DNA from: a virus
Reading direction: 5' to 3' (one strand)
Virus record (IMG/VR): IMGVR_UViG_3300045988_122718
Coordinates: 64,001-128,000 of that record
Length of the DNA: 64,000 nt
Position 1 is the first letter of the stretch, and the number at the start of each line of letters is the position of its first letter. Positions 1-53,355 of this stretch are shown here, piece after piece. A program made the position numbers and the translations under genes. The notes under the pieces are model-generated. The model saw only the letters and a program-made list of their open reading frames with translations. It had not been told where the DNA came from and did not search any database.

Positions 1-701
1 GGTCTAATATAGTTGGCGATAGGTTTGGAAATCTTGTTGTTAAAGAAATGTTATATAACTATAGGAATGGAAAAACATATTGTTTATGCGATTGTGATTG
101 TGGCAAAGAACATATTTGTTCCTTATCTAATTTATCTACTGGTCATACGACTTCATGTGGTTGCATGAAATCTGAAAAAAATTGGAATGGTAGACGTACA
201 AATTTAGTGGGGAATAGATTTGGTATGTTAGTTGTTGATGAGATGTTGTATGGATATATAAACAAGCAAACATGTTGTAAATGTACTTGTGATTGTGGGA
301 ATACATCAATTGTATATATGAGTAATTTGTTGCAAGGCTTTACTCATTCATGCGGATGTAGCGAACATAATTCTGTTGGAGAGCAATTAATTAAAAGTAT
401 ATTGGATAAAAATGAAATTAAATATATTTATAATTATAGGTTTGATGATTGTAGAAATGTTCTTCCACTTCCATTTGACTTTTATCTTCATGAATATAAT
501 ACTTGTATAGAATATGATGGTATTCAACATTTTGAGCCAATTGAATATTTTGGTGGAGAATATGCACTTCAACAACGACAAATGAATGATAATATTAAAA
601 CACAGTATTGTATTGATAATGATATCAAATTAATACGATTGCCATATACATTGTCAGAAGATGAAATAATAAATATAATTTTAAATATTTGGAATCCGTA
701 A
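1..701 (+). CDS. homing-endonuclease-like protein, 5' partial (Zn-ribbon repeats + Vsr/DUF559-type PD-(D/E)XK nuclease domain)
   Basis: The frame is open from the window edge (SNIVGDRFGNLVVKEM...). There are three copies of G-x-RFG-x-LVV...C-x-C-DCG...SCGC. The C-terminus FDFYLHEYNTCIEYDGIQHF resembles Vsr/DUF559 endonuclease cores. It sits just upstream of, and in the same orientation as, an N-terminally truncated tape-measure ORF. Confidence 0.6.
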   Translation, partial: SNIVGDRFGNLVVKEMLYNYRNGKTYCLCDCDCGKEHICSLSNLSTGHTTSCGCMKSEKNWNGRRTNLVGNRFGMLVVDEMLYGYINKQTCCKCTCDCGNTSIVYMSNLLQGFTHSCGCSEHNSVGEQLIKSILDKNEIKYIYNYRFDDCRNVLPLPFDFYLHEYNTCIEYDGIQHFEPIEYFGGEYALQQRQMNDNIKTQYCIDNDIKLIRLPYTLSEDEIINIILNIWNP

Positions 702-906: not shown

Positions 907-3900
907 TTGCTGAATGTTTCAGAATTCGAGAGTGCTGATGAAGCGTCAGAAGCGTTAATCAGTACCATGCAAGCTTATGGATACGCTGCAGAAGATAGTA
1001 TGCATGTTGTTGATATACTTAACGAAATAGGAAACAATTTTGCGATTTCTAGTGACGGATTGGCAACAGCTCTACAAGATTCAGCAAGTTCCTTAATGGC
1101 TGCGGGGAATTCGTTAGAACAAAGTGTAGCAATGGTAGCAGCTGCCAACAAAGTGCTTCAGGATCCTAATTCCGTAGGAAGTGCGTTGCGTACAATTTCG
1201 CTAAGAATTAGAGGAACTAGCGTAAAAGTTTTAGAAGAAATGGGTGAGGAAACTGATGGCGTTATCGAGAGCGTCAGTAAACTCCAAGCCAAAGTCAAAG
1301 GTCTAAGTGGAGTCGATATCCTAACCGACACTGGTGCTTATAAAGATACATACACAATTATCAAAGAAATTGGTCAAGTATGGGAGCAAATGAACGACAT
1401 TGACCGTGCTGCGTTACTTGAGTTGTTAGCAGGTAAGAATCGTTCGAATGCAATGGCAGCCCTACTAACTAACATGGAAGACCTTGAGGGTGCATACGAA
1501 AGTGCAATGGAAGCACAAGGTTCAGCAGAGGCCGAGAACAAAAAGTACATGAATAGTATTCAAGGTAGAATTGATCAATTTACTAATGCTTTGCAAACTA
1601 TGTGGAAAAATGCAATTGATTCTAATTTTGTAAAGTTTATTGTTAGTGTAGGTACTGGATTAGTAAAAGTTGTTAATTGGCTCGGAATGATACCAACCAT
1701 ACTTGGCACAATAGCCGGAGCTATGTCTGCAATTAAAGGACAGAATCTTTTTGTTAACTTAACTGGAAATGGAAAGTCTGGGATTATAACTGAGTTAATT
1801 CAAAAGGTTAAAGAAGGCATACCCGCTATAAGAGAATTTAATTCAATTCAAGGCGTAGATAATCAAGCCAAATTTTTAAATAGTTTAAAAGAAACTAATC
1901 CCGAACTTTCAAATTATATTACAAAGGTTATGTCGGCCTCTGCTGTAACAACCGAAAATGGAGTTGCTACAAATATAGCAAGTGTATCTCAAAAGAGATA
2001 TATAGGAAGTTTAGTTGCAGCGAAAGTGGCTTCAATAGGGTTAAAGGTTGCAACAGTTGCACTAAATGCCGCACTAACAATTGGCATTAGTTTATTGATT
2101 TCTGGAGCTATATCCGCTATATCTAAAGTAATCAATGGTGTTAAAGAGGCAAAAGAAGAAACAAAGAGGTTGACAGAAGAATTGAAGCAGCAACAAGCCG
2201 AAATAAAATCTAATATTTCTTCGTTGGAGTCATTAAAAGATGAATTTGATAAATTATCAAAGGGTGTAGACGAGTATGGCAATAATATTTCTTTGTCAAC
2301 AGAAGAATATGCAAAGTATAAATCAATAGTTGAGCAAATATTTGGGTATACTCCTACTTTAATTAGTGGATATGATAAAGAAGGAAATGCTATTGCTAAT
2401 AAAAATAGCCTCATTGAAAAATCTATAGAGCTACTAAAGGAAGAAAGAAAACAAAAGCTTTTAGAACTTGTTACAGATGATAAGCTTAAGGTGGCGTATG
2501 ACTCAGCAAAGGAAAATCATGATAAGGCAAAAAAAAAGCTTAAAAATGTAAATGTCCCATCTACATTAGCATATAGCGGTGTTAAGATTGATGATAATGG
2601 CAAAGAACATAGTGGATATGTAAATCAAATTGATAAGTATATTGAAGATGTAATTGGCGTAGAAAAAAGTGTGTGGGAGTCTCTTACTGAATATATAGCT
2701 AGAAATTCTGATGCCGTAAGAAAGAATATAGGGAAGATTATTGAGCGCTCTGGCCAAACAAAAGATGGATGGAAGGGTTTGAACGATAAACAACAAGCAG
2801 AACTTTTAAACTATTTGAACAATGTTTTATCTGGTGTGAGAGAAACAGATGCTGCGTGGGATAGTTTTATTCAGACATTGCAGCTTGTTCCACAAATATC
2901 TACTTATTATGATAAATTATCAGATTCACAGAAGAGCTTCATATCATCCTATATTAATGGGCTTGGTGATTTGAGTAATAAAACAGAAGCAGAAATTAAT
3001 AATATAAAAACCAGTATTTTATCTTTAACAAATGCAATCGGAAGTGACAAAGAGGCACAGTCTTTAATTGACCAATTATTTTCTATTGATTCAAATCTTT
3101 CTGCAAAAGAATATTCTGACAAAATATCTGAAATTTTTAATAAGCTTGTTGAAAAAGGAATAATTTCAAACGACAACAAACAAAAGTTTATAGAACAACT
3201 GTTCCCAGATTTGAAAGATATCGAAACTATGCAAGAAGATGTCAAAAAGAAAATAAAAGATGATCAACAAGATTTAGTAAATAGCTTAAATGTTCAAGAT
3301 TTAAAAATTGCATATTCAATAGATGCCAGTGATCTTTCATTTGATGAATTAAAGAAAAAAATTCAAGAAGTAAAAGTTGCTACTATTGGCGATTTTGATA
3401 TTTCTAACTATTCTGATTCAATTTCGAGTCTAAGTGAAAATATTGGTGTTCTCCAAGCCGCCCTTGAAAAATTGAATAGTGGCTCGTTTACTATGGACGA
3501 TTATGTCAAACTAATTAAGGACTTCCCAAAACTTGCAAAAGGTGTTGATGTTAGTTCTAAGAGTTTCAAGGGGTTAACTTCTAATCTAGTAAGAGCAATA
3601 AAGGCATCCCCAAAGAGCATGGTTAAGGACTTAAAAGCGTTAAAGTTACAATTAATGCAAACTGGTAGGTCTACTTCTGATATTGACCAGCTTATTTATT
3701 CCTTGGAACATATGCCAGAAAATGCTCTTGATAGTATGATTACCAAATATGCTACACTTGCAGATAATATAACTGAAGCTACTGAGGCTCAAAATGAACT
3801 AAAAGCCGCTATGGAAGAAAATCCAAATGAGGGATTTGAAACACGTGGCGAAGCTATGGATTATATGAAAGAGGCTATGAGTCGTGGAGAAATTGGTAGT

Positions 3901-6900
3901 GAATCTAACCTTTGGAATGTCGCAGAAAAATATGGATTTACTTTTGATTCTGCAAAATCAATAAATGAAAATGCTGATGCATTAGCTAAGTTCATTGCAA
4001 CACGTGAAAAGTGGTTTAAGCAGGATGATGATGGTAATTATACATATGAAGGAACAGAGGACTTCATCAAAAAAGTAGATGCGGCTGTTGCTTCTATGCC
4101 AGAGCTTCAAGAACTTATGAAGTGGGATTATAACGAAAGTACTGGGGTTCTTGATTTTGACTTTAAGAATAAAGATTGGGATCAAATTGTTAAGTATTTA
4201 AGTACATGTGAAGGCTTAATCGGATTGACATCTGATGAATGGGCGGACATGCTAGTTCAGGTCGGTCAGTATTTTAATATTGATTGGTCAAATTATAATG
4301 ATGAATTAGAATACTTAAAGAAAATAACAACTGAAGATATGGATAATAAGACCAAAGTAGAAAAATATGGTTCTGCTATGCAGGAATATTTTGGCAAGGA
4401 TTCTTCTATAGACTTGGCTAATCGCCCAATGATTAGCAGTTCAAAGATGAATACAAAGGGATGGGATATAGAAGACGGTAGTTATGCAACTGTACTTTCT
4501 AGTGCTTATTCTAATGAAGGGGGAACTGTTGCCATAACTGTAACACCAATTCTTCCAGATGGAGAAGTTTTAACAGAGGATGAACTAACAAAATATGCTA
4601 CAGAAATTGTAAACGGCGCAGACCCAGTAACATATGAATTCGAAGTCAATGGTAAGACTTATACTGGAGAAGACATTATTCTAGCAAAGCATAATGGTAA
4701 GAACCCAATAGAGGAAGCAAAAGAATATGGTAAAGCACTGCATGAAGCACAAGAAGAATATGATAAACTAAGAGACACTCTCAACATCAACACTACAATT
4801 GACGAAAAGGGTATTAATGGTCTATCTGAAATTAAAGAAATTCAAGGTGCAATCCAGAAGAATGCAGATGGTACTACTATAATTGACGAGCAGGCATTCA
4901 GAAAAGCACTAACGAGTGCCGAATACACAGAAGATCAAATTGATTTAATTATTGATAAAATTAAATACTTAAATAAAGAAGCTTTTGCTTCTGACACATT
5001 TAATATTGGCAAGATACTTGACAAAGAAACTGGCTCTGGAATTGATGGATTGTTAGAAATTAAGGAACTACAAGACGCAATTGAAAAAGATGCAAATACC
5101 GGGTTTACAGTTATTGATACGGACATGTTTACTTCTGTTCTTTCTGAGGCTGGATATACAAAAGCTCAAATTGATGAACTTATCCAAAAAATTCAAGAAT
5201 ATGAAAATGTTGTTTCTGTGGCTGGGAATACAGATCCACTTGGACTTAGTGGTGCAAATTTAAGTATTGATACATTAAAAGCATCTCTTAGTACTTTAGG
5301 TGTGTTTTTTGAAGACACTCTTGGTGACTGGTTTGATGGAAAAAGAGATCTTGTAATTAATGTTCCAAATTTAGTTTCTACACTTAAAGAAAAGGGTTGG
5401 TCTGAAGAAGCAATAAGAAGTTATTGTGAACAGCTATCTAAAGCCAACATTGAAGGATTCAATATTAAAGTCAATTCTCAAGAAATAGATGAAGCATTGG
5501 CAAAATCAGATGATGTTCCTGAAGAAAAAACGACAAACTATGAAGTAACCGGAAATGGTGCTACTACTCTTGATGGAATAGAAGATACATGGTCAAATGT
5601 TACAAAGGATAAAACAACGAATTATACCATTAATGAGACAACGGTAAAGAAAACTGTAGATGATAGTCCTAAGTGGTATAAACCATGGACCTGGTTTGCA
5701 GATGGAACTGCAAATGCTCAAGGGAATTGGGGTGCAGAACGAACAGAAACATCTCTTGTTGGTGAGTTAGGCCCAGAACTTCGTGTACGTGGAAGTCGTT
5801 GGGAAATGCTCGGTGAAAACGGGGCAGAATTTACTGATGTTAAAAAGGGCGATATTATATTCAACCATAAACAAACAGAAGAATTGTTGAAGAATGGGCA
5901 TATTACTGGTCGTGGTAAAGCGTATGCCAATGGAACAGCTTATGCTGCTGGTGACGGCACTTTTTCTAGATATAATTTTAGTGGCAATGGTGGATATACG
6001 AAGTACGATGTAAATAATAGCATAGTTGATTCGTTTGGTAATGCTGCTAGTTCAGTATCTGACGCTGCCGATGATATTTCTGATGCCGCTGATAAATTCG
6101 AAGAAGTATTCGACTGGTTTGAAGTTCTTCTAGAAGAAATCGAAGACAATATCAGCTTAATGAATGCCAAGCTAGAAAATGCAGTTGGTATAAGTGCAAA
6201 GAAAGGTATTTATTCTGAAATTCTAAATACAGAACAATTCAAGTTACAAGAATTATATGAGGGTGTCAAACTATATTCCGATTATGCCAATAAGCTTCTT
6301 GCTAAAGTTCCAGACCAGTATAAAGAAATGGCTAAAAATGGCGCGGTCGCTATCACAGACTTCCTTGGTGAAGCAAACGAAGAAGTTGTAGACTCAATTA
6401 ACAACTATCGTGAGTGGGCAAAGAAGGTATCCGACCTTAATCAGCAATTAGAAGAAACAAAGAAGACTATTGCCGATACTCATGTAGAAATACAGAATAT
6501 GCTTAAAGATGAATATGATAATCGTATATCTTTAATTACTTCTGTAAACGACCGTATACAAGATACAATAGACTTACTCGATGAAGAAGGCAAACGTTCT
6601 TCTGCTGTAATGTATGAAGAAATGATAAAAAATAGTACAAAACAATTATCAGAACTTCAAAGCAAACGTGCAGAAATGCAGAGAGCATTAGACGAAGCCG
6701 TGAGAAGCGGAGACGTAGCTAGAGAAAGCTCACAATGGTACGAGATGGTCAATGCAATCAATGATGTCGATAGTGAAATTAATGATTGTAGAATTGACCT
6801 TGAAAGTTTCCAAAACTCTATCAACCAGCTTCATTGGGATAACTTTGAAAAGTTCATTGATGCCATTGACAATGTTGGCAACGAAATTTCCAATCTAGGA

Positions 6901-41223: not shown

Positions 41224-41267
41224 TTAATTTTGTACTGTAATTATAACAGATATTTTCTATTTGTCAA
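41224..41267 (-). promoter_or_regulatory. sigma-A promoter + leader box
   Basis: TTGACA (41262-41267, overlapping the TGA of the upstream gene), 16 nt spacer, TGTTATAAT (-10 at 41240-41245), then ACAGTACAAAATTAA (41224-41238). Confidence 0.65.
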
Positions 41268-42388
41268 GATGTTCTTAACCTTTCAATAAGTTTTTTTAGA
41301 ATTTTAGCAATATCAGAAATATCGTGCTGATTCAATGTTTCGTCCAATGTAATACGAATTGTGTTTAAAGCTTCTGTGTCTGTAAGTCCGATAGCTTTTA
41401 ATGTACTACTTGGCACAGCCTCCCCACTACTACAAGCAGAACCTGCAGAGATATAAATCCCATACATACTTGCTAGAGTCACAAGGTCACTAGCTTTTAC
41501 TCCATCAATACGAACAGAAATATTATTGCACAGACGATTAGTATCAAGTTCTGGACCATTTAGATGTACTCCAGGAATTTCAAGAATTTTCTTTGCAAGT
41601 TCATCCCTATTAAATCTAGTACAAATGTTTGTATAGTCGTGTAACGTTCCTCTATTAATCTCTAGCGCTTTACCCATAGCTGCTATTGCAGGAGTATTTT
41701 CAGTTCCTCCTCGTTTGTGTAATTCTTGACTTCCATAAATAATCGGTGATAAATCAATTGTATCTTTGCAGTATAAAAATCCTGCACCTCTTCCACCTCT
41801 AAATTTCTGTGCTGAAATACTCATCATATCTATTCTAAGCTTATCAACATCAATTCTTGATTCAGGGAAATATTGAACGGCATCCACATGTAATATACAA
41901 TTATATTTATGCGTAATATATGAAATAGATTTAATATCTTGGAGTGTTCCAATTTCAGAGTTTGCATACTGAATACTAACAATAGAATTATTATGTTCTT
42001 TTATTGTATCTTCTAAAATATTTGCATCAATATTTCCAAATTCATCTACTGGAATATAATGTACATTAGTAAATTTATGATGATTTAAAATTTCACTAAT
42101 AGATTTATGCTCTAATTGTGTCGTTATAATAGTGTCAAAATTTGTTCCACAAAGTGCTAAAGTGTTTGCCTCTACTCCCCCACTTGTGAAAATTATTTCT
42201 TTAGGTTCACAATTAATGTCTGCTGCAATTTGATCTCTTACATTTTCAATTATATTTTTAGCATCTTGCCCCATCTCATGAGTCGAAGATGGGTTGCCAT
42301 AATGATTATACATTACATCGGCAACCACATCTACAACTTCTTTGTATGGCTGAGTAGTAGATGCGCAATCTAAAAAGTATTTCTTCAT
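41264..42388 (-). CDS. cysteine desulfurase (class V aminotransferase, NifS/IscS-like)
   Basis: The PLP-lysine region SAQKFRGGRGAGFLY corresponds to S-x-HK..GPKG.G. The active-site loop is SAGSACSSG. Confidence 0.8.
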   Translation of the reverse strand: MKKYFLDCASTTQPYKEVVDVVADVMYNHYGNPSSTHEMGQDAKNIIENVRDQIAADINCEPKEIIFTSGGVEANTLALCGTNFDTIITTQLEHKSISEILNHHKFTNVHYIPVDEFGNIDANILEDTIKEHNNSIVSIQYANSEIGTLQDIKSISYITHKYNCILHVDAVQYFPESRIDVDKLRIDMMSISAQKFRGGRGAGFLYCKDTIDLSPIIYGSQELHKRGGTENTPAIAAMGKALEINRGTLHDYTNICTRFNRDELAKKILEIPGVHLNGPELDTNRLCNNISVRIDGVKASDLVTLASMYGIYISAGSACSSGEAVPSSTLKAIGLTDTEALNTIRITLDETLNQHDISDIAKILKKLIERLRTS

Positions 42389-42887: not shown

Positions 42888-42926
42888 TAGAAAAATAGCC
42901 ACCTTTTTACAGGCGGCTTATTTTTT
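42888..42926. terminator. hairpin terminator after glyA (T-runs on both sides)
   Basis: AGCCACC-TTTTTACA-GGCGGCT, flanked by GAAAAAT (a T-run in - sense) and TATTTTTT. Confidence 0.6.
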
Positions 42927-44163
42927 ACATATAAATTGGATGTAGTTCGCATAGTTGACGAGCTATATCGGAGATATATTTCTTATTGCCATCGAAGTCT
43001 TTGATGGCCAACGAAATAAGTCCCGCCACATTTCTTGCGTCAAACTTATCAAAGCCACGTGTAGTAATTGCGGGAGTCCCAATACGAAGACCACTAGTTA
43101 CAAATGTGGATAGAGGGTCGTTAGGAATTGAATTTTTATTCGTTGTAATGTTTACACTATCGAGCTTCTCCTGTAATTCTTTGCCAGTAATTCCTGTGTC
43201 TCTAAGGTCTAGAATCATTAGATGATTATCTGTTCCCCCAGAAATAAGCTTAATGCCATTTGTGTTAAATACACTTGCCATAGCCTTTGCATTATTAATA
43301 ACATTATTCTGATATTCTGCAAATTCTGTCTTCAACGCTTCTCCAAAACATACTGCCTTTGCTGCAATTATATGTTCTAGAGGACCTCCCTGAGTACCAG
43401 GAAATACCGCCGAATCAATCTTCTTTGCAAGTTTACTCTTGCACAAAATAACTGCACCACGAGGGCCTCTCATGGATTTATGAGTCGTAAATGTGCAAAC
43501 ATCAGCATAAGGGACAGGACTTGGATGTACGCCTCCTGCTACAAGGCCAGCAATATGTGCCATGTCTACAAAGAGATAAGCACCGACTTCATCTGCAATT
43601 TCACGGAACTTTGTAAAATCAATGATACGCGGATATGCAGAAGCTCCTGCCAAAATCATCTTAGGCTTGTTCTTTAGTGCAAGGTCTCTCACATTGTCAT
43701 AGTCAATAAAGCCATCTTCTCCTACGCCATAATGAACGACATTAAAATATTTTCCAGAGATATTGAACGATGCTCCGTGACTGAGATGTCCACCGGCAGA
43801 AAGATCCATGGACAGAACGGTATCACCAGGAGATAATAGTGCATAAAATACTGCCAAATTTGCGCTTGCTCCTGAATGCGGCTGCACGTTTGCATGTTCT
43901 GCTCCAAATAGCTTTTTACAACGTTCAATTGCAAGAAGTTCTACTTCATCAATATACTGACATCCACCATAGTATCTCGCATGAGGCTTTCCTTCTGCGT
44001 ATTTATTAGTTAGAACAGATGACATTGCGTCAAGAACTGCTGGAGATACAATGTTTTCTGATGCAATAAGTTCAATTGTACCACGTTGCCTGTTAAGTTC
44101 TTTCAAACAAATATCGTATACTTCTACATCTTGCTTTTTTAGATTGTCTAGCATTATATTCAC
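42925..44163 (-). CDS. glyA: serine hydroxymethyltransferase
   Basis: The PLP site is [12 protein letters not shown], and SHMT-like sequence runs throughout ([10 protein letters not shown]..., GGHLSHG). Confidence 0.9.
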
Positions 44164-44364: not shown

Positions 44365-45120
44365 CTATATATCAAATTCTTTGTGTCTACCACAATCTCT
44401 TGATAACCACGTTATATTTCTTTTACCATTACCTTTGTTTGCTCCTCTATATGTAGGAGTTAATGAATGACAATTAGGGCATAACAATGTTAAATTTTCT
44501 TCTTTATTATTTGTTGCATCTCCATCAATATGTTCTATTTCAAGTGGCAAAGTTCCAGTATATGGATTAATTTCACTCCACCCACATTTTGCACATTTAT
44601 TTTCGTATTTATCAAAAATATATTTTTTAATAGACGAAGATAGGTCTATCCATTTATCACCTGTTAATCCATCCCATTCTCCATCTTTCCATTGTTTTAT
44701 TTTTTGTTTATATCTATATTCATTAAAACATTTTGCAGAACAATATTTATTTTTCTTAGGTATTTCTTTATTACAATTAATACAATAATGATGTCCTACT
44801 TTCTTTTTTCTATGTTGGTTGCTATATGTCACAGAGCATGAACGGGAACAAAACTCAATTCTTTTAAAATCACTATTTTTTTGATTATATTTTTGCGAGA
44901 TTTCTTTCCCACAATTTTTACAAAACTTAATATCTAATTCTTCTTTAATGTGCGGACATTTTTCAATCATACAATATTTTATTGTAGATAATTGCTTTTC
45001 AAATGTTTTATGACACCCATCACATTCTACAATATATATAGTATGATTGTCTTTTGTTCTTTTGTCAGATATCCCTATTATTGTATAACATCCATATTTT
45101 TCTCCTATGTGTTTATCCAT
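44365..45120 (-). CDS. HNH endonuclease (multi-Zn-ribbon N-terminus)
   Basis: The C-terminus LEIEHIDGDATNNKEENLTLLCPNCHS is an HNH core. It is embedded in the tRNA array. Confidence 0.8.
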   Translation of the reverse strand: MDKHIGEKYGCYTIIGISDKRTKDNHTIYIVECDGCHKTFEKQLSTIKYCMIEKCPHIKEELDIKFCKNCGKEISQKYNQKNSDFKRIEFCSRSCSVTYSNQHRKKKVGHHYCINCNKEIPKKNKYCSAKCFNEYRYKQKIKQWKDGEWDGLTGDKWIDLSSSIKKYIFDKYENKCAKCGWSEINPYTGTLPLEIEHIDGDATNNKEENLTLLCPNCHSLTPTYRGANKGNGKRNITWLSRDCGRHKEFDI

Positions 45121-45152: not shown

Positions 45153-45284
45153 TGGTGGGCCTGGAGGAACTCGAATCCTCGACCAATAGCTTAATGGTGG
45201 GAATGGCAGGTGCTGCCCCTACTTGCAAAAGCTTTTCTGAATACACCCCCAAGGCTACTGCTCTACCTACTGAGCTACAGACCC
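45153..45284 (-). tRNA. tRNA-Lys(UUU) interrupted by a 56-nt tRNA-like minihelix
   Basis: GGGTCTG-TA-GCTC..GAGC-A-GTAGC-CTT[56 nt]TTAA-GCTAT-TGGTC-GAGGA-TTCGAGT-TCCTC-CAGGCCC-A-CCA. The length is 76 nt after removal, and the body resembles bacterial tRNA-Lys. Confidence 0.8.
45195..45250 (-). ncRNA. nested tRNA-like minihelix (intron candidate) in tRNA-Lys
   Basis: GGGGGTG-(21 nt)-GTAGG-GGCAGCA-CCTGC-CATTCCC-A-CCA: a 7-bp acceptor-like helix (2 G-U), a 5-bp stem, a 7-nt GGCAGNA loop, a discriminator and CCA. Confidence 0.7.
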
Positions 45285-46001: not shown

Positions 46002-46124
46002 TGGCAGGGGTAGCAGGGTTCGAACCTACGATGCGGGAGTCTGGTCAAGGTAGTTGGTACTGCCCCAACTAAATTCACTTGAATACCTTGAAAGTCCCGT
46101 GCCTTACCACTTGGCTATACCCCT
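46002..46124 (-). tRNA. tRNA-Gln(UUG) interrupted by a 49-nt tRNA-like minihelix
   Basis: AGGGGTA-TA-GCC-AAGTGGTAA-GGC-A-CGGGA-CTTT[49 nt]GAC-TCCCG-CATC-GTAGG-TTCGAAC-CCTGC-TACCCCT-G-CCA. The body resembles bacterial tRNA-Gln (GCCAAG.GGUAAGGCA, weak 1-72 pair, G73). Confidence 0.8.
46042..46090 (-). ncRNA. nested tRNA-like minihelix (intron candidate) in tRNA-Gln
   Basis: CAAGGTA-TTCAAGTGAATTTA-GTTGG-GGCAGTA-CCAAC-TACCTTG-A-CCA. Confidence 0.7.
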
Positions 46125-47566: not shown

Positions 47567-47719
47567 TGGTCCCCTACCGGTGGATTGAACACCGAACCTC
47601 CCGATTATTGGCCTCCTCAGTAAGTCCTGCCCTTACATCTCTAAATCCTGCTGTTTAGTAGTTCTACTATTAAACTATGAGGAGAAGTCGGGTGCTCTAG
47701 CCAGTTGAGCTAGCAGGGG
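47567..47719 (-). tRNA. tRNA-Ile(UAU) interrupted by a 76-nt tRNA-like element
   Basis: CCCCTGC-TA-GCTC..GAGC-A-CCCGA-CTT[76 nt]ATAA-TCGGG-AGGTT-CGGTG-TTCAATC-CACCG-GTAGGGG-A-CCA. The length is 77 nt after removal. Confidence 0.75.
47609..47684 (-). ncRNA. nested full-length tRNA-like element (intron candidate) in tRNA-Ile
   Basis: CTCCTCA-TA-GTT-TAATAGTAG-AAC-TA-CTAAA-CAGCAGGA-TTTAG-AGAT-GTAAG-GGCAGGA-CTTAC-TGAGGAG-G-CCA. It is cloverleaf-sized, with an 8-nt anticodon-like loop and a GGCAGGA T-loop. Confidence 0.65.
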
Positions 47720-48133
47720 ATATATAATCCGGCTTTTACGGTACGACCAGTAAGATGGACGCGCTTGAATTTCACAATTGCCTAGCGTTTCAGGTACTTT
47801 TTAGGAGTTTGGATGTAATACCTTATCCATTCACGCATAGTCCATTAGTACCATGGGCTATAGGACTCACTCCAAGTGGCCGGATTCAACTCCCCTGTAA
47901 ATTCAGGTCTTCCTATCCCCTACCCTTGAAGGATGTTTACCATACTTTTATACCGCTGGCACACATCAGGCGGCTGTGGTAATGATAGCAAGCGGAGCCG
48001 TGCATGACTCCATTTCATAGTGTTTCGTCAATTGCCTTCAGCTCATCCAAGTAATATCAACAGTTAGCAAATTCTGTCGAGAGCTTATTCTCATCGGTAA
48101 TCACTTATGAAATTTGCACTACTCACTATCATC
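47720..48133 (-). ncRNA. large unassigned structured non-coding block (414 nt)
   Basis: It is visibly GC-richer than the flanks, has no credible ORF or RBS, and lies between tRNA-Asn and tRNA-Ile. Its 3' ~55 nt are repeated at 48291-48345. Confidence 0.35.
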
Positions 48134-48210
48134 TGGCGGGAGTAGAAGGACTTGAACCTACGACATCTTGCTTAACAGGCAAGCGCTCTAACCAACTGAG
48201 CTATACTCCC
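48134..48210 (-). tRNA. tRNA-Asn(GUU)
   Basis: GGGAGTA..CTTGC-CTGTTAA-GCAAG..GTAGG-TTCAAGT-CCTTC-TACTCCC-G-CCA. Confidence 0.85.
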
Positions 48211-48213
48211 AAA

Positions 48214-48290
48214 TGGCGACCCATACCAGACTTGAACTGGTGTCCTCTTGCGTGACAGGCAAGCGTGATACTCTTCTTCACCAATGGGCC
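48214..48290 (-). tRNA. tRNA-Asp(GUC)
   Basis: GGCCCAT..CTTGC-CTGTCAC-GCAAG..ACCAG-TTCAAGT-CTGGT-ATGGGTC-G-CCA. Confidence 0.85.
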
Positions 48291-48408
48291 ATATTATGCC
48301 GGCTTTTACGGCATATTTAGCTAGAATATGCTTGAATTCCACAAAAGATGTTTTCTCTATATTAGACACAGTTATTCCCCGGTAGAAAATCTAACACCCG
48401 CTGCGTCT

Positions 48409-48550: not shown

Positions 48551-48683
48551 TGGTGCGGGTAGCGAGACTCGAACTCGCACGGATATTTCACCGAGGGATT
48601 TTTGGTGGATATTGTAGGTACTGCCCCTACCAAAGCACTTGCTATACCCAAGTCCCTTATGTCTGCCATTCCATCATACCCGC
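48551..48683 (-). tRNA. tRNA-Leu(UAA), class II, interrupted by a 47-nt tRNA-like minihelix
   Basis: GCGGGTA..A-AGGGA-CTT[47 nt]AAAA-TCCCT-CGGTGAAATATCCGT-GCGAG-TTCGAGT-CTCGC-TACCCGC-A-CCA. The length is 86 nt after removal. AAGGGA.UUAAAAUCCCUCGG matches bacterial tRNA-Leu(UAA). Confidence 0.8.
48603..48649 (-). ncRNA. nested tRNA-like minihelix (intron candidate) in tRNA-Leu
   Basis: GGGTATA-GCAAGTGCTTTG-GTAGG-GGCAGTA-CCTAC-AATATCC-A-CCA. Confidence 0.7.
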
Positions 48684-48731: not shown

Positions 48732-50285
48732 TTAAGAGTTCTTCAATGCGGCTTCCACCGCATCATATCTATCACTCATAAGCGTCTCAACTAGACACTC
48801 ATAAGGATCGGGTTTACCACTCATAACCATCTTGCAAACATTAGTGGAGAATCCGCTAACAAGAGCAACACCAAGGTCATTCTCCTTTACATGAATAGTT
48901 CCAGTGCGAGAATTTACATTCCAGAAGACTAGTCTAGGCATCTTATACCCAGCATACTCGAAACGCTTTTTGATCACATTAAAAAGTCTTGCATTAGGTC
49001 TATTAATACCATATCTAGCGGAACCATCACATGTTGCACAAGAGTCAAACTCCATGTCTGAAATAATGAGTACATTCTTAGGCATATCCTCTTGCTTCAT
49101 ACGACCATTTACCGCAGTAGTAAGAATCAAATCAAACACCTTTTCAATGTTTGTATTCGAACACTCGTCATGACCATACGCAACACATAACTTATCTCTC
49201 AGAGAATCGCACTGACTAAAATCAACCAACTGAGGTCTGCTAGAGAAAGTAATATATTTATCTTTAAAGTCTCCAGAAGAATGTTCTGCAAAGTAAATTG
49301 CAAGTGCATTTGCAACTTCAAGTGCAGTAACACGGCTACTTTCACCAACGTTACAACACATAGAAGCAGAACCATCTGCAACTACAATGGTGTTTCCACA
49401 CTCATTTACTGTATCAGGCAAAGCCCTCCAAAGAGATTCAAGAGTTGCATCATACTTGTTGACATAATTATTCCATCCAATTGTGTTAGAATACTTATGT
49501 ACAATGTCGTGAGGGAACAAAGTTCTAGCATTAATCTTAGTTTCACCATTTTCAAGCTTACTTAGATACTCTCTGCGACGCTCCTTATCATTACGAAGGA
49601 AAGCTCCGTTATAAATGAGATTTGCACGAGAAGGAACCGTTTCGTACTTAATGTCTCCCCATTTCTTTGCAGACATCTTACTTTCTACAATGTCAATGTA
49701 AGAACGCAGAGAAGAAAGAATCTTACGATACTTACGCTCTGTCATTCCAAGATTCTTGCAAATGTATCTTGCATCCATCTTAGTTTTTGCAGAAGAAGCA
49801 TTCACAGAAGGAAGCCACTTTGCAAGAAGAGATACGGGCTTATTATCAGCCATATTTGCAATGTCATCGGTGAGCTGCTTTTTGATGATGTCAAGAATAA
49901 CACCATCTACATCTGTTCCAAACAGACACCATAGGTCATCATAACGACCATACTCACTCACTAGAGGAGCAAGATGCTTAACAATGTCAACGTCATCCTT
50001 TACCATATTCTTAAGAATCACTCTGAACAAATGTCTCTCACCAAGACCACCATGAACATCTCTGGCGAAGAACAGCCAACGTAGAGCCATCATTTTATCT
50101 TCAAAATAAGCCTTAGTAAACTTATTATAGATATTCTCCTCACTCATACCACGCATAGAAGAAACTGCAAAGTTTAGGTCAACCAGTTCCTTACCAGAGG
50201 TACGATACCCAAGAGCGCCATTCTCAGTTACTGAATAGTTGAAATCCTCGTTCAGAGTATTCTTTACTGCATTCATAAAAGACAT
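48732..50285 (-). CDS. TROVE/DUF2828-like + vWA domain protein (Ro60-related candidate)
   Basis: The N-terminus VTENGALGYRTSGKELVDLNF...RWLFFARDVHGGLGER resembles DUF2828/TROVE. The C-terminal half has the vWA MIDAS motif VVADGSASM (D-x-S-x-S). A GGAGG RBS precedes the ATG at 50285. The size is Ro60-like. Confidence 0.6.
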   Translation of the reverse strand: MSFMNAVKNTLNEDFNYSVTENGALGYRTSGKELVDLNFAVSSMRGMSEENIYNKFTKAYFEDKMMALRWLFFARDVHGGLGERHLFRVILKNMVKDDVDIVKHLAPLVSEYGRYDDLWCLFGTDVDGVILDIIKKQLTDDIANMADNKPVSLLAKWLPSVNASSAKTKMDARYICKNLGMTERKYRKILSSLRSYIDIVESKMSAKKWGDIKYETVPSRANLIYNGAFLRNDKERRREYLSKLENGETKINARTLFPHDIVHKYSNTIGWNNYVNKYDATLESLWRALPDTVNECGNTIVVADGSASMCCNVGESSRVTALEVANALAIYFAEHSSGDFKDKYITFSSRPQLVDFSQCDSLRDKLCVAYGHDECSNTNIEKVFDLILTTAVNGRMKQEDMPKNVLIISDMEFDSCATCDGSARYGINRPNARLFNVIKKRFEYAGYKMPRLVFWNVNSRTGTIHVKENDLGVALVSGFSTNVCKMVMSGKPDPYECLVETLMSDRYDAVEAALKNS

Positions 50286-50530
50286 TTTCTTTCCTCCATT
50301 TTTTTGATTTATTTCTAAATCCCAAGACACATTATTATGTACAATCTCCACATTAAAAATTTGCTGTTAGTGTCTTTGGAGTTTATTCAACGAGACGCCA
50401 AAATAAAACCATTAGTAAAAATATCATTTTCATCTTTTTAAATTACTGTAAGCGTCTCTATGTAAGGCAAGGCACCATCAATACAAATCCATATCATATT
50501 ATGTAAAGTTGCTGTTAGTGCCTTTTTAAA

Positions 50531-50648
50531 GTCTCCTGACAGGACTTGAACCTGCGACCTCTGGTTTAACAGACCAATTAGAAACTTGCTATTTAAGGCT
50601 TTTACAAGTCTCGTTATTAAGCGCTCTATCCGACTGAGCTACAGGAGA
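50531..50648 (-). tRNA. tRNA-Asn(GUU) copy with a 44-nt insertion between the D-arm and anticodon stem
   Basis: TCTCCTG-TA-GCTC-AGTCGGATA-GAGC-G-[44 nt]-TTGGT-CTGTTAA-ACCAG-AGGTC-GCAGG-TTCAAGT-CCTGT-CAGGAGA-C. No CCA is encoded. Confidence 0.55.
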
Positions 50649-51311: not shown

Positions 51312-51340
51312 TATTATAGCACATTAATTTTGTTTTGTCA
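51312..51340 (-). promoter_or_regulatory. sigma-A promoter (tandem, upstream of the previous one)
   Basis: TTGACA (51335-51340, overlapping the TGA of the PurA-like gene), 17 nt spacer, TGCTATAAT (-10 at 51312-51317). Confidence 0.6.
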
Positions 51341-52486
51341 AGTATCTTTTTTAAATAATTTTCTAGTTTCTTCATAAGACAGGTACTTAATATTAATGCC
51401 CGTCAAATTCAGCAGTTTTTCATTTTTAAACTCGTTAACATGAGTTACTGCCAGAGACACCTCATAGGCAATATCCCCAATATCTTCCTTAATTCTTTGC
51501 ATAAGCTCACCAACATCAAGATGCCCATACCGAATAGACCCCTGATACTGGTTTGTAATATTGGTCTTGTCATCAATGTTAATGTTAATCTCCGACTTGT
51601 CACATTCACATTCAAAATCACCAGCACCATGCTTCGTCATATATGTTCTAGTAACATAGCACACTTCAACGTTTGCATTAGGTAAATACTTTTCAATGAT
51701 TATATGAGGATTTGCAATGCCAGTATTGCTAGGAGTCGTATTATCATAATACTGAACATGACGCTGATCCAACAGCAATCCTTGCCCATTTTCAAATATA
51801 ACGTTATCAAACTTTTGCAAAATCCTACTATAATCAAATACTACATGAGAATGTATAAACTGCACATCGTCAATAAAGTTATAAATCAAATTGTCGGATG
51901 CCAAAATATCTTCCCATTCCTGCAAAACTTCAGGACTAGCCTTTAGCAGCCTCTTAGACGTATATTCATCCCTGACACGCTTAAGAAATGCGACCTGCTC
52001 GTCCTTAGTCATATTATAAAACTGCTGGAAAGACGGACTTGTAGTATTCCTATATCTAAGAACAGTTTCCCAAATACCCATACCACAAGAGCCATACCGA
52101 TTTTTGCCACGACTATCCTCAAGGATTTGATTTGTAATCATATCATATGGAGTAGACCATCTGCAATTCCAATGACTATAAACACGAGGTGCATAGCCTA
52201 ATGCCTTCAGTTCCTCGTACTCTTTTCTAAAAGTCATAGGATTTAGAATATACTCTTCCCCAAAATAAGTATCTGCTCCCGCAAAGGTTCCTGAACCAAA
52301 ATGGTGGAACACATGTCTAATGTCATCTGGAGTAACTACAGTATGTCCTCTTTGTGCGCCGCCATTGCATAGAGCAACGATACAAGATTCATTCCGCTTA
52401 CTTGCTTCGGCACAAAAGTAATCGGTCATCAGACCTTTTCCCTCGTCGCCAAAATTGCTGCCAATTACTACCTTAACATTAGACAT
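51338..52486 (-). CDS. adenylosuccinate-synthetase-like (PurA family) enzyme, divergent
   Basis: P-loop VVIGSNFGDEGKGLMTDYF, GGAQRGHTV and YGSCGMGIWET parallel the PurA motifs (GDEGKG, N-A-GHT, TTG-GIGP). The ATG at 52486 follows AAAGGA. Confidence 0.65.
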   Translation of the reverse strand: MSNVKVVIGSNFGDEGKGLMTDYFCAEASKRNESCIVALCNGGAQRGHTVVTPDDIRHVFHHFGSGTFAGADTYFGEEYILNPMTFRKEYEELKALGYAPRVYSHWNCRWSTPYDMITNQILEDSRGKNRYGSCGMGIWETVLRYRNTTSPSFQQFYNMTKDEQVAFLKRVRDEYTSKRLLKASPEVLQEWEDILASDNLIYNFIDDVQFIHSHVVFDYSRILQKFDNVIFENGQGLLLDQRHVQYYDNTTPSNTGIANPHIIIEKYLPNANVEVCYVTRTYMTKHGAGDFECECDKSEININIDDKTNITNQYQGSIRYGHLDVGELMQRIKEDIGDIAYEVSLAVTHVNEFKNEKLLNLTGINIKYLSYEETRKLFKKDT

Positions 52487-52500
52487 GTGTTTATCCTTTC

Positions 52501-53355
52501 TTACCAAGAAATACCTTCACTAGATGTTGCTACATTGCCACCAGAAAACGCATTGGTGACAATATCAATGATGTCGTCTGCAATCTTATCAACAGATGTA
52601 TCCTTCAGATGATTCTCGTCCAGAAGCTGTCCGAAAGTCTTATGAACATCCTCCTGATAACGACCATAACCATGCTTGACATACAGGTGATAGATATCAA
52701 ACTTCTCGGATGCATCAATGTAAAGCTGCGTCGTTTCAATATCATTCTGTAGGTCATCACCAGTCACTGCAGATAGAGCCTTCTTCGGCAGATATGGATT
52801 CATAGGCTCATCACCCATAGTGATAATGACACCCTTCTGTCCACGATTCCAGCAGTCTAGCTTCGTGTGGTTAAGGCCGAAATACCATGCGGCGCTATAA
52901 GACTCATAAGCATTACCTCCGCCGCCGCCCTCAAAATAAATCTTATCAAGCTGTTCTGCGATACGGATATCAGACTCAAACTGGGATGCCTGAATTGGAG
53001 CGCAATCGTAAGCAAGGTCCCCAATGCCCATAACCATAAACTCTACGTCTGCGATATTCTCGTATAGTTTGGTCATTACTACGTTGATCTGCTTTGCAAC
53101 TTCCATAGCCGCCTTGCCCATGCTACCAGTTACATCGAGTGCTAGAATAACAGGCTTGGTATTAGGATGCTCCACAGAATCAACACACTCACGCATTACA
53201 TTCTTGGGATCAAGGTCTGCTACTAGCATTCTAGATCTGAAATTGTCCTGCACATTAGAGGACATTCCAGTGACTACACCGTCCATTGACACGTTGTACC
53301 CCTTGGTAGTCGTATAAGAGGTAAAAGCGCTTCTAGTCCAACTGCCACCGCCCAT
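52501..53355 (-). CDS. von Willebrand factor A (vWA) domain protein
   Basis: The MIDAS motif is LALDVTGSMG (D-x-T/S-x-S), with a beta-alpha pattern typical of vWA. Confidence 0.7.
   Translation of the reverse strand: MGGGSWTRSAFTSYTTTKGYNVSMDGVVTGMSSNVQDNFRSRMLVADLDPKNVMRECVDSVEHPNTKPVILALDVTGSMGKAAMEVAKQINVVMTKLYENIADVEFMVMGIGDLAYDCAPIQASQFESDIRIAEQLDKIYFEGGGGGNAYESYSAAWYFGLNHTKLDCWNRGQKGVIITMGDEPMNPYLPKKALSAVTGDDLQNDIETTQLYIDASEKFDIYHLYVKHGYGRYQEDVHKTFGQLLDENHLKDTSVDKIADDIIDIVTNAFSGGNVATSSEGISW

Follow-up and report, generated by a model that had tools for sequence, protein, structure and literature searches.

The sequence analysed here is a 64,000-nt window (bases 64001-128000) of a 155,169-bp virus record, IMG/VR IMGVR_UViG_3300045988_122718, that has direct terminal repeats, and our subject is a 414-nt block at positions 47720-48133 of the window, on the minus strand, which separates the gene for tRNA-Asn from that of a tRNA with an insert in its anticodon loop (Table 1). 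Both tRNA genes belong to an island that runs on the minus strand from about 50,650 to 44,200 and holds about 20 tRNAs, five of them with inserts of 38–76 nt near the anticodon; we note that the five inserts have sequence in common. The initial annotation, made from the window sequence, had delimited the block correctly and had proposed that it is a large structured non-coding RNA. That it is non-coding agrees with all of our searches: ARAGORN, run with a relaxed score and with introns allowed, reports neither a tRNA nor a transfer-messenger RNA (tmRNA) in the block, an Rfam 15 search of the window gives nothing there at the gathering score or at E ≤ 10, so that no known family is matched, and the sole open reading frame (ORF) of at least 40 aa, a 75-aa frame at 47755-47982 on the plus strand, lacks a Pfam match and is, as had been suspected, a spurious antisense frame. 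Of the RNAs that could not be recognised by eye, namely tmRNA, RNase P RNA and the group I intron, none is detected in the block by ARAGORN or Rfam, nor is a tRNA. The block is also richer in G+C (GC) than nearby coding DNA (0.45–0.47 versus 0.24–0.40), as had been observed, and this is common to the whole tRNA island. When its 413 nt are folded as one RNA, the stability is ordinary in comparison with shuffled sequences (z = -1.23), so a single sequence alone does not show a large structured RNA.

Comparison with relatives gives a different picture. We fetched 43 related loci by means of the DUF2828 protein encoded at this locus, and compared the block to them by blastn and nhmmer. Nucleotides 1–156, 153–412 and 352–412 of the block are found apart from each other and in differing orders among these loci, and the block is therefore composed of three units, which we refer to as RNA A, RNA B and unit C. 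It is a mosaic, whose parts the phages gain, lose and recombine independently. The proposal of a large structured RNA thus holds in that structured RNA is encoded on the transcribed strand, and fails in that there is not one 414-nt RNA but two RNA genes and a leader; the conservation and covariation among related phages that would speak for structure are present in both RNAs, with changes on both sides of 32 of the 45 pairs in B, and covarying frame pairs in A.

RNA B is widely distributed. A first alignment of homologues shows invariant blocks interrupted by variable stems and indels, and motif scans recover 40 distinct copies in viral contigs and 115 metagenome contigs with B, several of them named as human-gut. 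Together the viral and metagenome contigs provide 111 distinct sequences, which form 57 clusters at about 92% identity and range from 160 to 320 nt in size. A covariance model (R1), built on a trimmed alignment and with the pseudoknot helices left out, matches B of the window with 161.6 bits (E = 1e-40, model positions 1–180, all helices present), and all 57 cluster representatives with 91–188 bits. The same kind of motif scan in 185,579 species genomes gives one true match, on a 3.4-kb contig binned in a metagenome-assembled genome (MAG) of the Selenomonadaceae, and R1 finds no B in 300 other genomes of the class to which this MAG belongs. Searching 50,697 GenBank phage records by blastn with three variants of B yields no true match, only chance matches to tail-fibre genes, and the block together with its flanking tRNAs matches only tRNAs in these records. 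As far as we have seen, B is confined to uncultured, mostly large phages.

These observations establish B as a widespread phage-borne family without a match in Rfam 15. An Rfam search at E ≤ 1 of 14 other B-bearing contigs reports only tRNAs, one ROOL RNA and one tmRNA fragment, and none of these falls on A or B. We regard B as a new family relative to Rfam 15; a published catalogue of viral candidate structured RNAs has models of up to 151 nt (PMC10690425), and overlap of fragments of A or B with that catalogue is possible.

The predicted fold of B begins with a hairpin, Pa (CCGC/GCGG), whose loop pairs with a downstream ACAUC to form a first pseudoknot (PK1). The long arm Pb, in which one A is bulged and GGAU/AUCC forms the apical stem, carries an extra 18-nt hairpin in the clade of the window; the helix H1 pairs CCUA with UAGG, and the hairpin Hx has a GGUAC loop that pairs with a GUACC about 70 nt downstream in a second pseudoknot (PK2). 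The hairpin P8 varies from 10 to 150 nt; in one homologue with an insertion of about 150 nt in P8 (L058:2346-2662, plus strand), B lies between two tRNAs with gaps of no more than 5 nt. The invariant strands of B are AUAAAA, UGAG, AUGCGUGAA, UAAAAAG and CUGAAACGCUAGGC. A candidate helix GCGU/ACGC is invariant and hence gives no covariation signal, and a further pairing, AGUCC/GGACU, was rejected because L130-type sequences break it.

In the alignment of the 57 clusters, standard pairs occupy 92.4% of the cells for the proposed pairs, compared with 32–40% when the partners are slid, and the changes on both sides of a pair amount to 418 cells. None of 500 shuffles reaches the observed pairing measures, and a MAFFT alignment of 27 B sequences gives the same covariation picture. 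Because the pseudoknot helices are absent from R1, they are independent tests of the fold. PK2 is supported by covariation in the two helices of the Hx/H2 pseudoknot, H2 covarying in all five of its pairs and Hx in five of six; one pair of H1 is UA in 48 clusters and AU in nine, and PK1 has one clearly covarying pair (GC in 38, UA in 19). By these comparisons B is a family with seven covarying helices and two supported pseudoknots. Taken alone, B of the window is not unusually stable (z = -0.76), and it is therefore covariation rather than thermodynamic stability that provides the evidence for structure.

RNA A is built differently. Its first base directly follows the CCA of tRNA-Asn, and its 3′ end is an encoded ACCA. 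The two ends are joined in a predicted 13-bp terminal stem, P1, with 5′ GAUGAUAGUGAGU and 3′ GCUUGCUAUCAUU, and just inside the 3′ strand is a hairpin, GGAGUC-AUGCAC-GGCUCC; the 5′ strand runs on as AGUGCAA, and the GUGCA within it can pair with the loop of this hairpin to form a predicted pseudoknot. In the window a helix P2 closes a body of about 100 nt, which we call type I. Pattern scans recover 43 distinct copies of A, and every copy inspected starts one base after a tRNA CCA. The frame is conserved, and encloses bodies that fall into three or more unrelated types, with lengths of about 100 (as in the window), 65 and 60 nt. One copy (L378, approximately 5480-5590, plus strand) has its body almost wholly deleted and the frame joined directly, which makes it a degenerate copy or else a frame in minimal form.

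Essentially all of the frame pairs are kept across the 43 copies, with a U-U at the terminal pair in four of them. Compensatory changes are seen in P1 (pair 8 is GC in 39 copies and AU in three, and other pairs alternate among A-U, G-U and G-C), in the 3′ hairpin, and in the pseudoknot, where three of five pairs are affected (one, for example, is AU in 37 and GC in five), with modest covariation in the helices of the type I body. A is also much more stable than its shuffles (minimum free energy z = -3.84; 0 of 200 shuffles). The comparisons show A as a predicted tRNA-like frame, conserved in itself, that carries interchangeable bodies. RNase P and the CCA-adding enzyme recognise the acceptor/T-arm minihelix, to which a 13-bp stem tailed by RCCA is similar, and we infer that A would be matured like a tRNA.

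Unit C, which contains a hairpin and a motif and recurs as a second copy upstream of tRNA-Asp (Table 1), is separate from B at three loci (L003, L013 and L011), and at L011 a B-C unit is followed by tRNA-Asp. We read C as a shared tRNA leader. C was also considered as a promoter, a candidate that was dropped because no consensus site is found there.

Table 1. Features of the window discussed in the text (positions are those of the window; for features read from right to left the first base is given first).
Feature	Position	Strand	Remarks
RNA A	48133-47977	-	157 nt
RNA B	47975-47779	-	197 nt
Unit C, leader of the downstream tRNA	47778-47720	-	about 59 nt; hairpin CCG-UAAAAGC-CGG, motif UUGUGAAAUUCAAGC
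Leader C, second copy, upstream of tRNA-Asp	48291-48350	-	read directly, UUGUGGAAUUCAAGC...AUGCCGUAAAAGCCGGCAU
tRNA-Asn (GUU)	48134-48210	-	74.1 bits; CCA directly 5′ of first base of RNA A
tRNA with 76-nt anticodon-loop insert	47567-47719	-	ARAGORN: Arg(tct) with intron; initial annotation: Ile
Other insert-bearing tRNAs	45156-45284, 46005-46124, 48554-48683, 50531-50648	-	share insert sequence with 47567-47719
DUF2828/DUF7788 protein	48732-50351	-	539 aa; Pfam; PHROG 'RNA-binding protein'; first gene after the promoters
Predicted sigma70-type promoters (TTGACA-17-TATAAT, upstream TG)	50849-50821 and 50731-50703	-	two perfect sites, 12/12 matches each
Predicted intrinsic terminator, strong	44200-44179	-	just 3′ of last tRNA (Gly)
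Metallophosphoesterase homologue	34010-34408	-	
AAA_33-type kinase	35773-36180	-	
RlaP-like nucleotidyltransferase	36629-37090	-	
RNA ligase	37473-38636	-	phrog_968
Zinc-ribbon/HNH endonuclease ORF	44365-45120	-	251 aa
PurZ-like adenylosuccinate synthetase	51338-52507	-	PF00709; phrog_1211 '2-aminooxy adenylosuccinate synthetase', E = 2e-62
Serine hydroxymethyltransferase	42925-44163		
Class-V aminotransferase	41264-42388		

The genomic context of the block is that of a tRNA operon. The DUF2828 gene and the entire tRNA island lie between the two predicted promoters and the terminator, which suggests a single operon of about 6.6 kb, and the minus strand of the block itself has no terminator-like site. 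The TGnTATAAT form of the promoters suggests that the host uses sigma70-type promoters with a Firmicutes-like extended -10 element. In other phages, too, B keeps company with tRNAs: 25 of the 40 copies have a tRNA on the same strand within 400 nt, in one contig (L344) B lies between two tRNAs with a 4-nt gap on either side, and in short metagenome contigs it is surrounded by tRNAs. One 2.3-kb metagenome contig (L260) carries both a B homologue (66-242, minus strand, 175.7 bits) and, 1.1 kb away, a ROOL RNA (1321-1901, minus strand, 279.6 bits), and the latter is a positive control showing that our Rfam search works.

We also clustered the ORFs around B, out to 6 kb, and list here the recurrent neighbours on its strand at the 38 cluster representatives whose flanks exceed 3 kb. 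The most frequent neighbour is a Ro60-like protein (14 of 38 loci), followed by a cysteine-rich protein of about 146 aa without a Pfam match (12 loci, for example L329:718-1204), an AAA_33 P-loop kinase (11 loci) and a protein with a metallophosphoesterase motif (DxH...GD...GNHD), also at 11 loci, where the motif was recognised by eye and Pfam gives no match; a methyltransferase is present at six loci, and a weak match to an RlaP-like 'RNA repair pathway' nucleotidyltransferase at five. The kinase, phosphoesterase and RlaP-like genes of the window, which are listed in Table 1 together with an RNA ligase gene, have homologues that recur at this distance from B in other phages. These neighbours place B in a region for tRNA supply and RNA repair or quality control.

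Two further observations concern the surroundings of the block. The HNH endonuclease ORF lies within the tRNA island in a markedly AT-rich stretch (GC 0.24–0.30), and may be a homing endonuclease insertion. The PurZ-like gene has genes for a serine hydroxymethyltransferase and a class-V aminotransferase near it, and the phage may make modified DNA bases, such as 2-aminoadenine or similar.

We think it probable that the block consists of two stand-alone structured RNA genes, A and B, together with the tRNA leader C, all within a polycistronic tRNA operon from which the RNAs are cut out by tRNA-maturation enzymes. Transcription would run from the two sigma70 promoters at about 50.8 kb to the terminator at 44.18 kb, and the host tRNA-maturation enzymes would release A and B from the tRNA precursor. 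In this scheme RNase P would generate the 5′ end of A, and also that of the next tRNA, and the ACCA of A and the tRNA ends on either side of B would mark where 3′ trimming comes to a halt. Both RNAs would then accumulate as compact, stable molecules that act in trans. As to what they do, our best guess, offered tentatively, is that A and B serve the tRNA supply, repair or quality-control programme of the phage, as the nearby accessory tRNAs do. They might be protein-binding decoys, or scaffolds for host or phage factors of RNA processing or tRNA targeting, and that machinery could have several optional RNA partners, of which B would be one.

Several points weigh against this interpretation. 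B is found at no fixed distance from its flanking tRNAs (-5 to 246 nt on the upstream side, 5 to 135 nt on the downstream side), and 15 of the 40 copies have no ARAGORN tRNA within 400 nt, so that release by tRNA enzymes cannot be universal. The promoter scan is a matching to consensus and thus no proof that the promoters are used, and our account of the transcription, processing and stability of A and B is drawn from genomic context. The covariation evidence for A is thinner than that for B, because the diversity of A is that of one clade of related gut phages. Finally, the functional guess rests on neighbourhood, and tRNA islands and RNA-repair genes may be co-located by genome layout.

A bolder proposal, which we consider possible but rather unlikely, would give each RNA a more specific role. 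B would represent a new functional class of phage RNA, whether catalytic, or forming an RNA-only assembly, or regulating the host machinery of tRNA cleavage or RNA repair, and A would be a natural 'tRNA scaffold' that matures by way of the tRNA enzymes and delivers interchangeable decoy bodies in an arms race between phage and host.

The initial annotation had raised the possibility of a Y-RNA-like partner for the adjacent Ro60-like protein, and the first half of this suggestion fares well. The AlphaFold model of the DUF2828 protein (predicted local distance difference test score, pLDDT, 74) matches Ro60/TROVE structures over its full length; its seven best matches in the PDB are all Ro60/TROVE (E = 5e-8 to 3e-6) and include the Ro60 of Thermus phage phiLo, which suggests that 'Ro60-like' is right at the level of the predicted fold. 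Our literature search found no paper on DUF2828 in phages. Bacterial Y RNAs are encoded within 4 kb of Ro60 on the same strand and are tRNA mimics, and YrlA can be a substrate of RNase P and receive CCA (PMC4201824); phiLo carries two Yrl RNAs beside its Ro60 gene (PMC12135203). A and/or B could accordingly be imagined as Y-RNA-like partners of the DUF2828 protein that link it to a host exonuclease, in the manner of the machines that Ro60, Y RNA and polynucleotide phosphorylase (PNPase) form in bacteria and in Thermus phage phiLo. Like YrlA and the phiLo Yrl1/2 RNAs, A and B are near a Ro60-fold protein, on the same strand and in a context of RNA-repair genes: they are 0.6–1 kb downstream of the DUF2828 gene in the same putative operon, well inside the approximately 4 kb typical of YrlA. 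B also lies 1–10 kb from DUF2828 genes that are just 37–40% identical, DUF2828 is present in 22 of 30 B-positive records, and A shares with YrlA a terminal stem and tRNA-like ends, and has a GACGAA motif.

We nevertheless think that this partnership is unlikely, as the association breaks down when whole genomes are compared. None of the 25 DUF2828-positive relatives that we checked has B anywhere, and 11 of these are 90% complete or better. Neither DUF2828 nor TROVE is present in five B-positive genomes of 93–100% completeness, and of 18 further records with A, 15 of them 90% complete or better, none has DUF2828. A and B thus differ from YrlA in that both are common in complete phage genomes that have no Ro60-like gene. 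The YrlA model (RF02553, gathering score 69 bits) has no match on A or B, its sole match in the window (17.9 bits, E = 7.6, at 48154-48269) being to the tRNA-Asn/Asp pair. In a Y RNA of this kind the Ro60-binding motif GNCGAAN0-1G is expected on the 5′ strand of the terminal stem, together with a D- and T-arm-like module; A of type I has a possible form of the motif, GACGAAAC (or, in variants, GGUGAAUG or GAUGAAG), in the 3′ half of the body, type II has AACGAAA, and B has no Ro60-binding motif in a terminal stem. An obligate pairing of Ro60 and Y RNA is refuted, whereas a facultative pairing is compatible with these data, and neither A nor B depends on the neighbouring Ro60-like protein. More generally, structured RNAs cannot be taken for Y RNAs just because a Ro60-like gene lies next to them.

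A second specific function, which we judge quite improbable, is catalysis: B would cleave itself, or act as a catalyst in some other way, and would aid the processing of the polycistronic tRNA precursor, as a larger analogue of the theta ribozymes, which resemble those of hepatitis delta virus (HDV). Theta ribozymes lie within 5 nt of the 3′ ends of phage tRNAs in gut Caudoviricetes and are pseudoknotted (PMC10879173), and B shares their gut-phage setting, their position beside tRNA genes and their pseudoknotted character. It begins 2–5 nt after the 3′ end of a tRNA or of A in the window, L132, L058 and L344, and its predicted core combines pseudoknots with invariant unpaired purine-rich strands of a kind often seen in ribozyme cores. 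The HDV-like fold is a nested double pseudoknot (P1-P1.1-P2-P3-P4) that cleaves at its own 5′ end, a few nucleotides from the tRNA 3′ end. B is, however, several times longer than a theta ribozyme, and by inspection its 5′ pseudoknot (Pa/PK1) lacks the P3, L3 and P1.1 elements of the HDV core; it matches no ribozyme family in Rfam, its distance from the 3′ end of a tRNA is not fixed, many copies have no adjacent tRNA, and no mark of a cleavage site is apparent. HDV-like, group I, RNase P, signal recognition particle (SRP), hammerhead and 11-nt-receptor readings of B had each been considered by eye and were dropped, resting on short strings or on the window-specific 18-nt insert.

The suggestion in the initial annotation that all 414 nt form one large, ornate RNA akin to ROOL or GOLLD seems to us very improbable. 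ROOL and GOLLD are phage-encoded and often near tRNA islands (PMC12286853), and the block is indeed non-coding and above coding DNA in GC. However, neither ROOL (RF03087, gathering score 99.1 bits) nor GOLLD (RF01998) has a match in the window at the gathering score or at E ≤ 10, even though ROOL is readily detected on L260; GOLLD exceeds 800 nt, while the units here are 157 and 197 nt; the parts of the block are separable in relatives and its stability as a whole is unremarkable; and A ends in a tRNA-like ACCA, while B is bracketed by tRNAs in other phages.

Many homologues of B have antisense open frames of 60–89 codons, and these are explained by the purine-rich sense strand of B (mean 58% purines). 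The register of the frame differs: some homologues translate the invariant 3′ motif as CLAFQ, and others have it in a PSVS register. Given this shifting register, the breaks in the frame in at least eight homologues, the lack of a consistent start codon or a Pfam match, and substitutions that are compensatory in the helices of B, the notion that the plus-strand ORF antisense to B yields a 75-aa protein can hardly be entertained.

Among known RNAs the nearest kind to B, by context, is the group of ROOL and GOLLD. Like B these are pseudoknotted non-coding RNAs of phages and prophages, encoded in or beside tRNA islands and without an assigned function (PMC12286853); B is unlike them in having no sequence or structure in common and in its size, 160–320 nt compared with about 580 nt for ROOL and more than 800 nt for GOLLD. 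Phage tRNA islands are now viewed as modules of counter-defence and of translation takeover, and ROOL and GOLLD, abundant and structurally spectacular, share these islands while still lacking a function. To their company B adds a third family, much smaller and very well conserved, whose size of about 170–200 nt suits structure determination and genetics. An older parallel is provided by the stable RNAs species 1 and 2 of phage T4 (rnaC and rnaD), small RNAs of unassigned function that are encoded among the T4 tRNA genes and matured with them; the setting in a tRNA cluster is similar to that of A and B, in another group of phages and another host. For A, the comparisons that come to mind are the tRNA-like domain of tmRNA and the engineered 'tRNA scaffold' used for recombinant RNA. 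A differs from both in its continuous 13-bp stem, where they have a 7-bp acceptor plus a T stem, and it has neither a G3-U70 pair nor a tag frame; it is like them in its acceptor-like ends, in a T-arm-like hairpin predicted to touch the 5′ strand, and in a body that stands in the place of the anticodon arm. In A these phages appear to keep the tRNA-like frame and to swap the RNA body that it carries, which makes it a natural counterpart of the engineered scaffold and hints at diversifying selection. Both A and B offer concrete, testable handles on the roles of the non-tRNA RNAs in phage tRNA islands.

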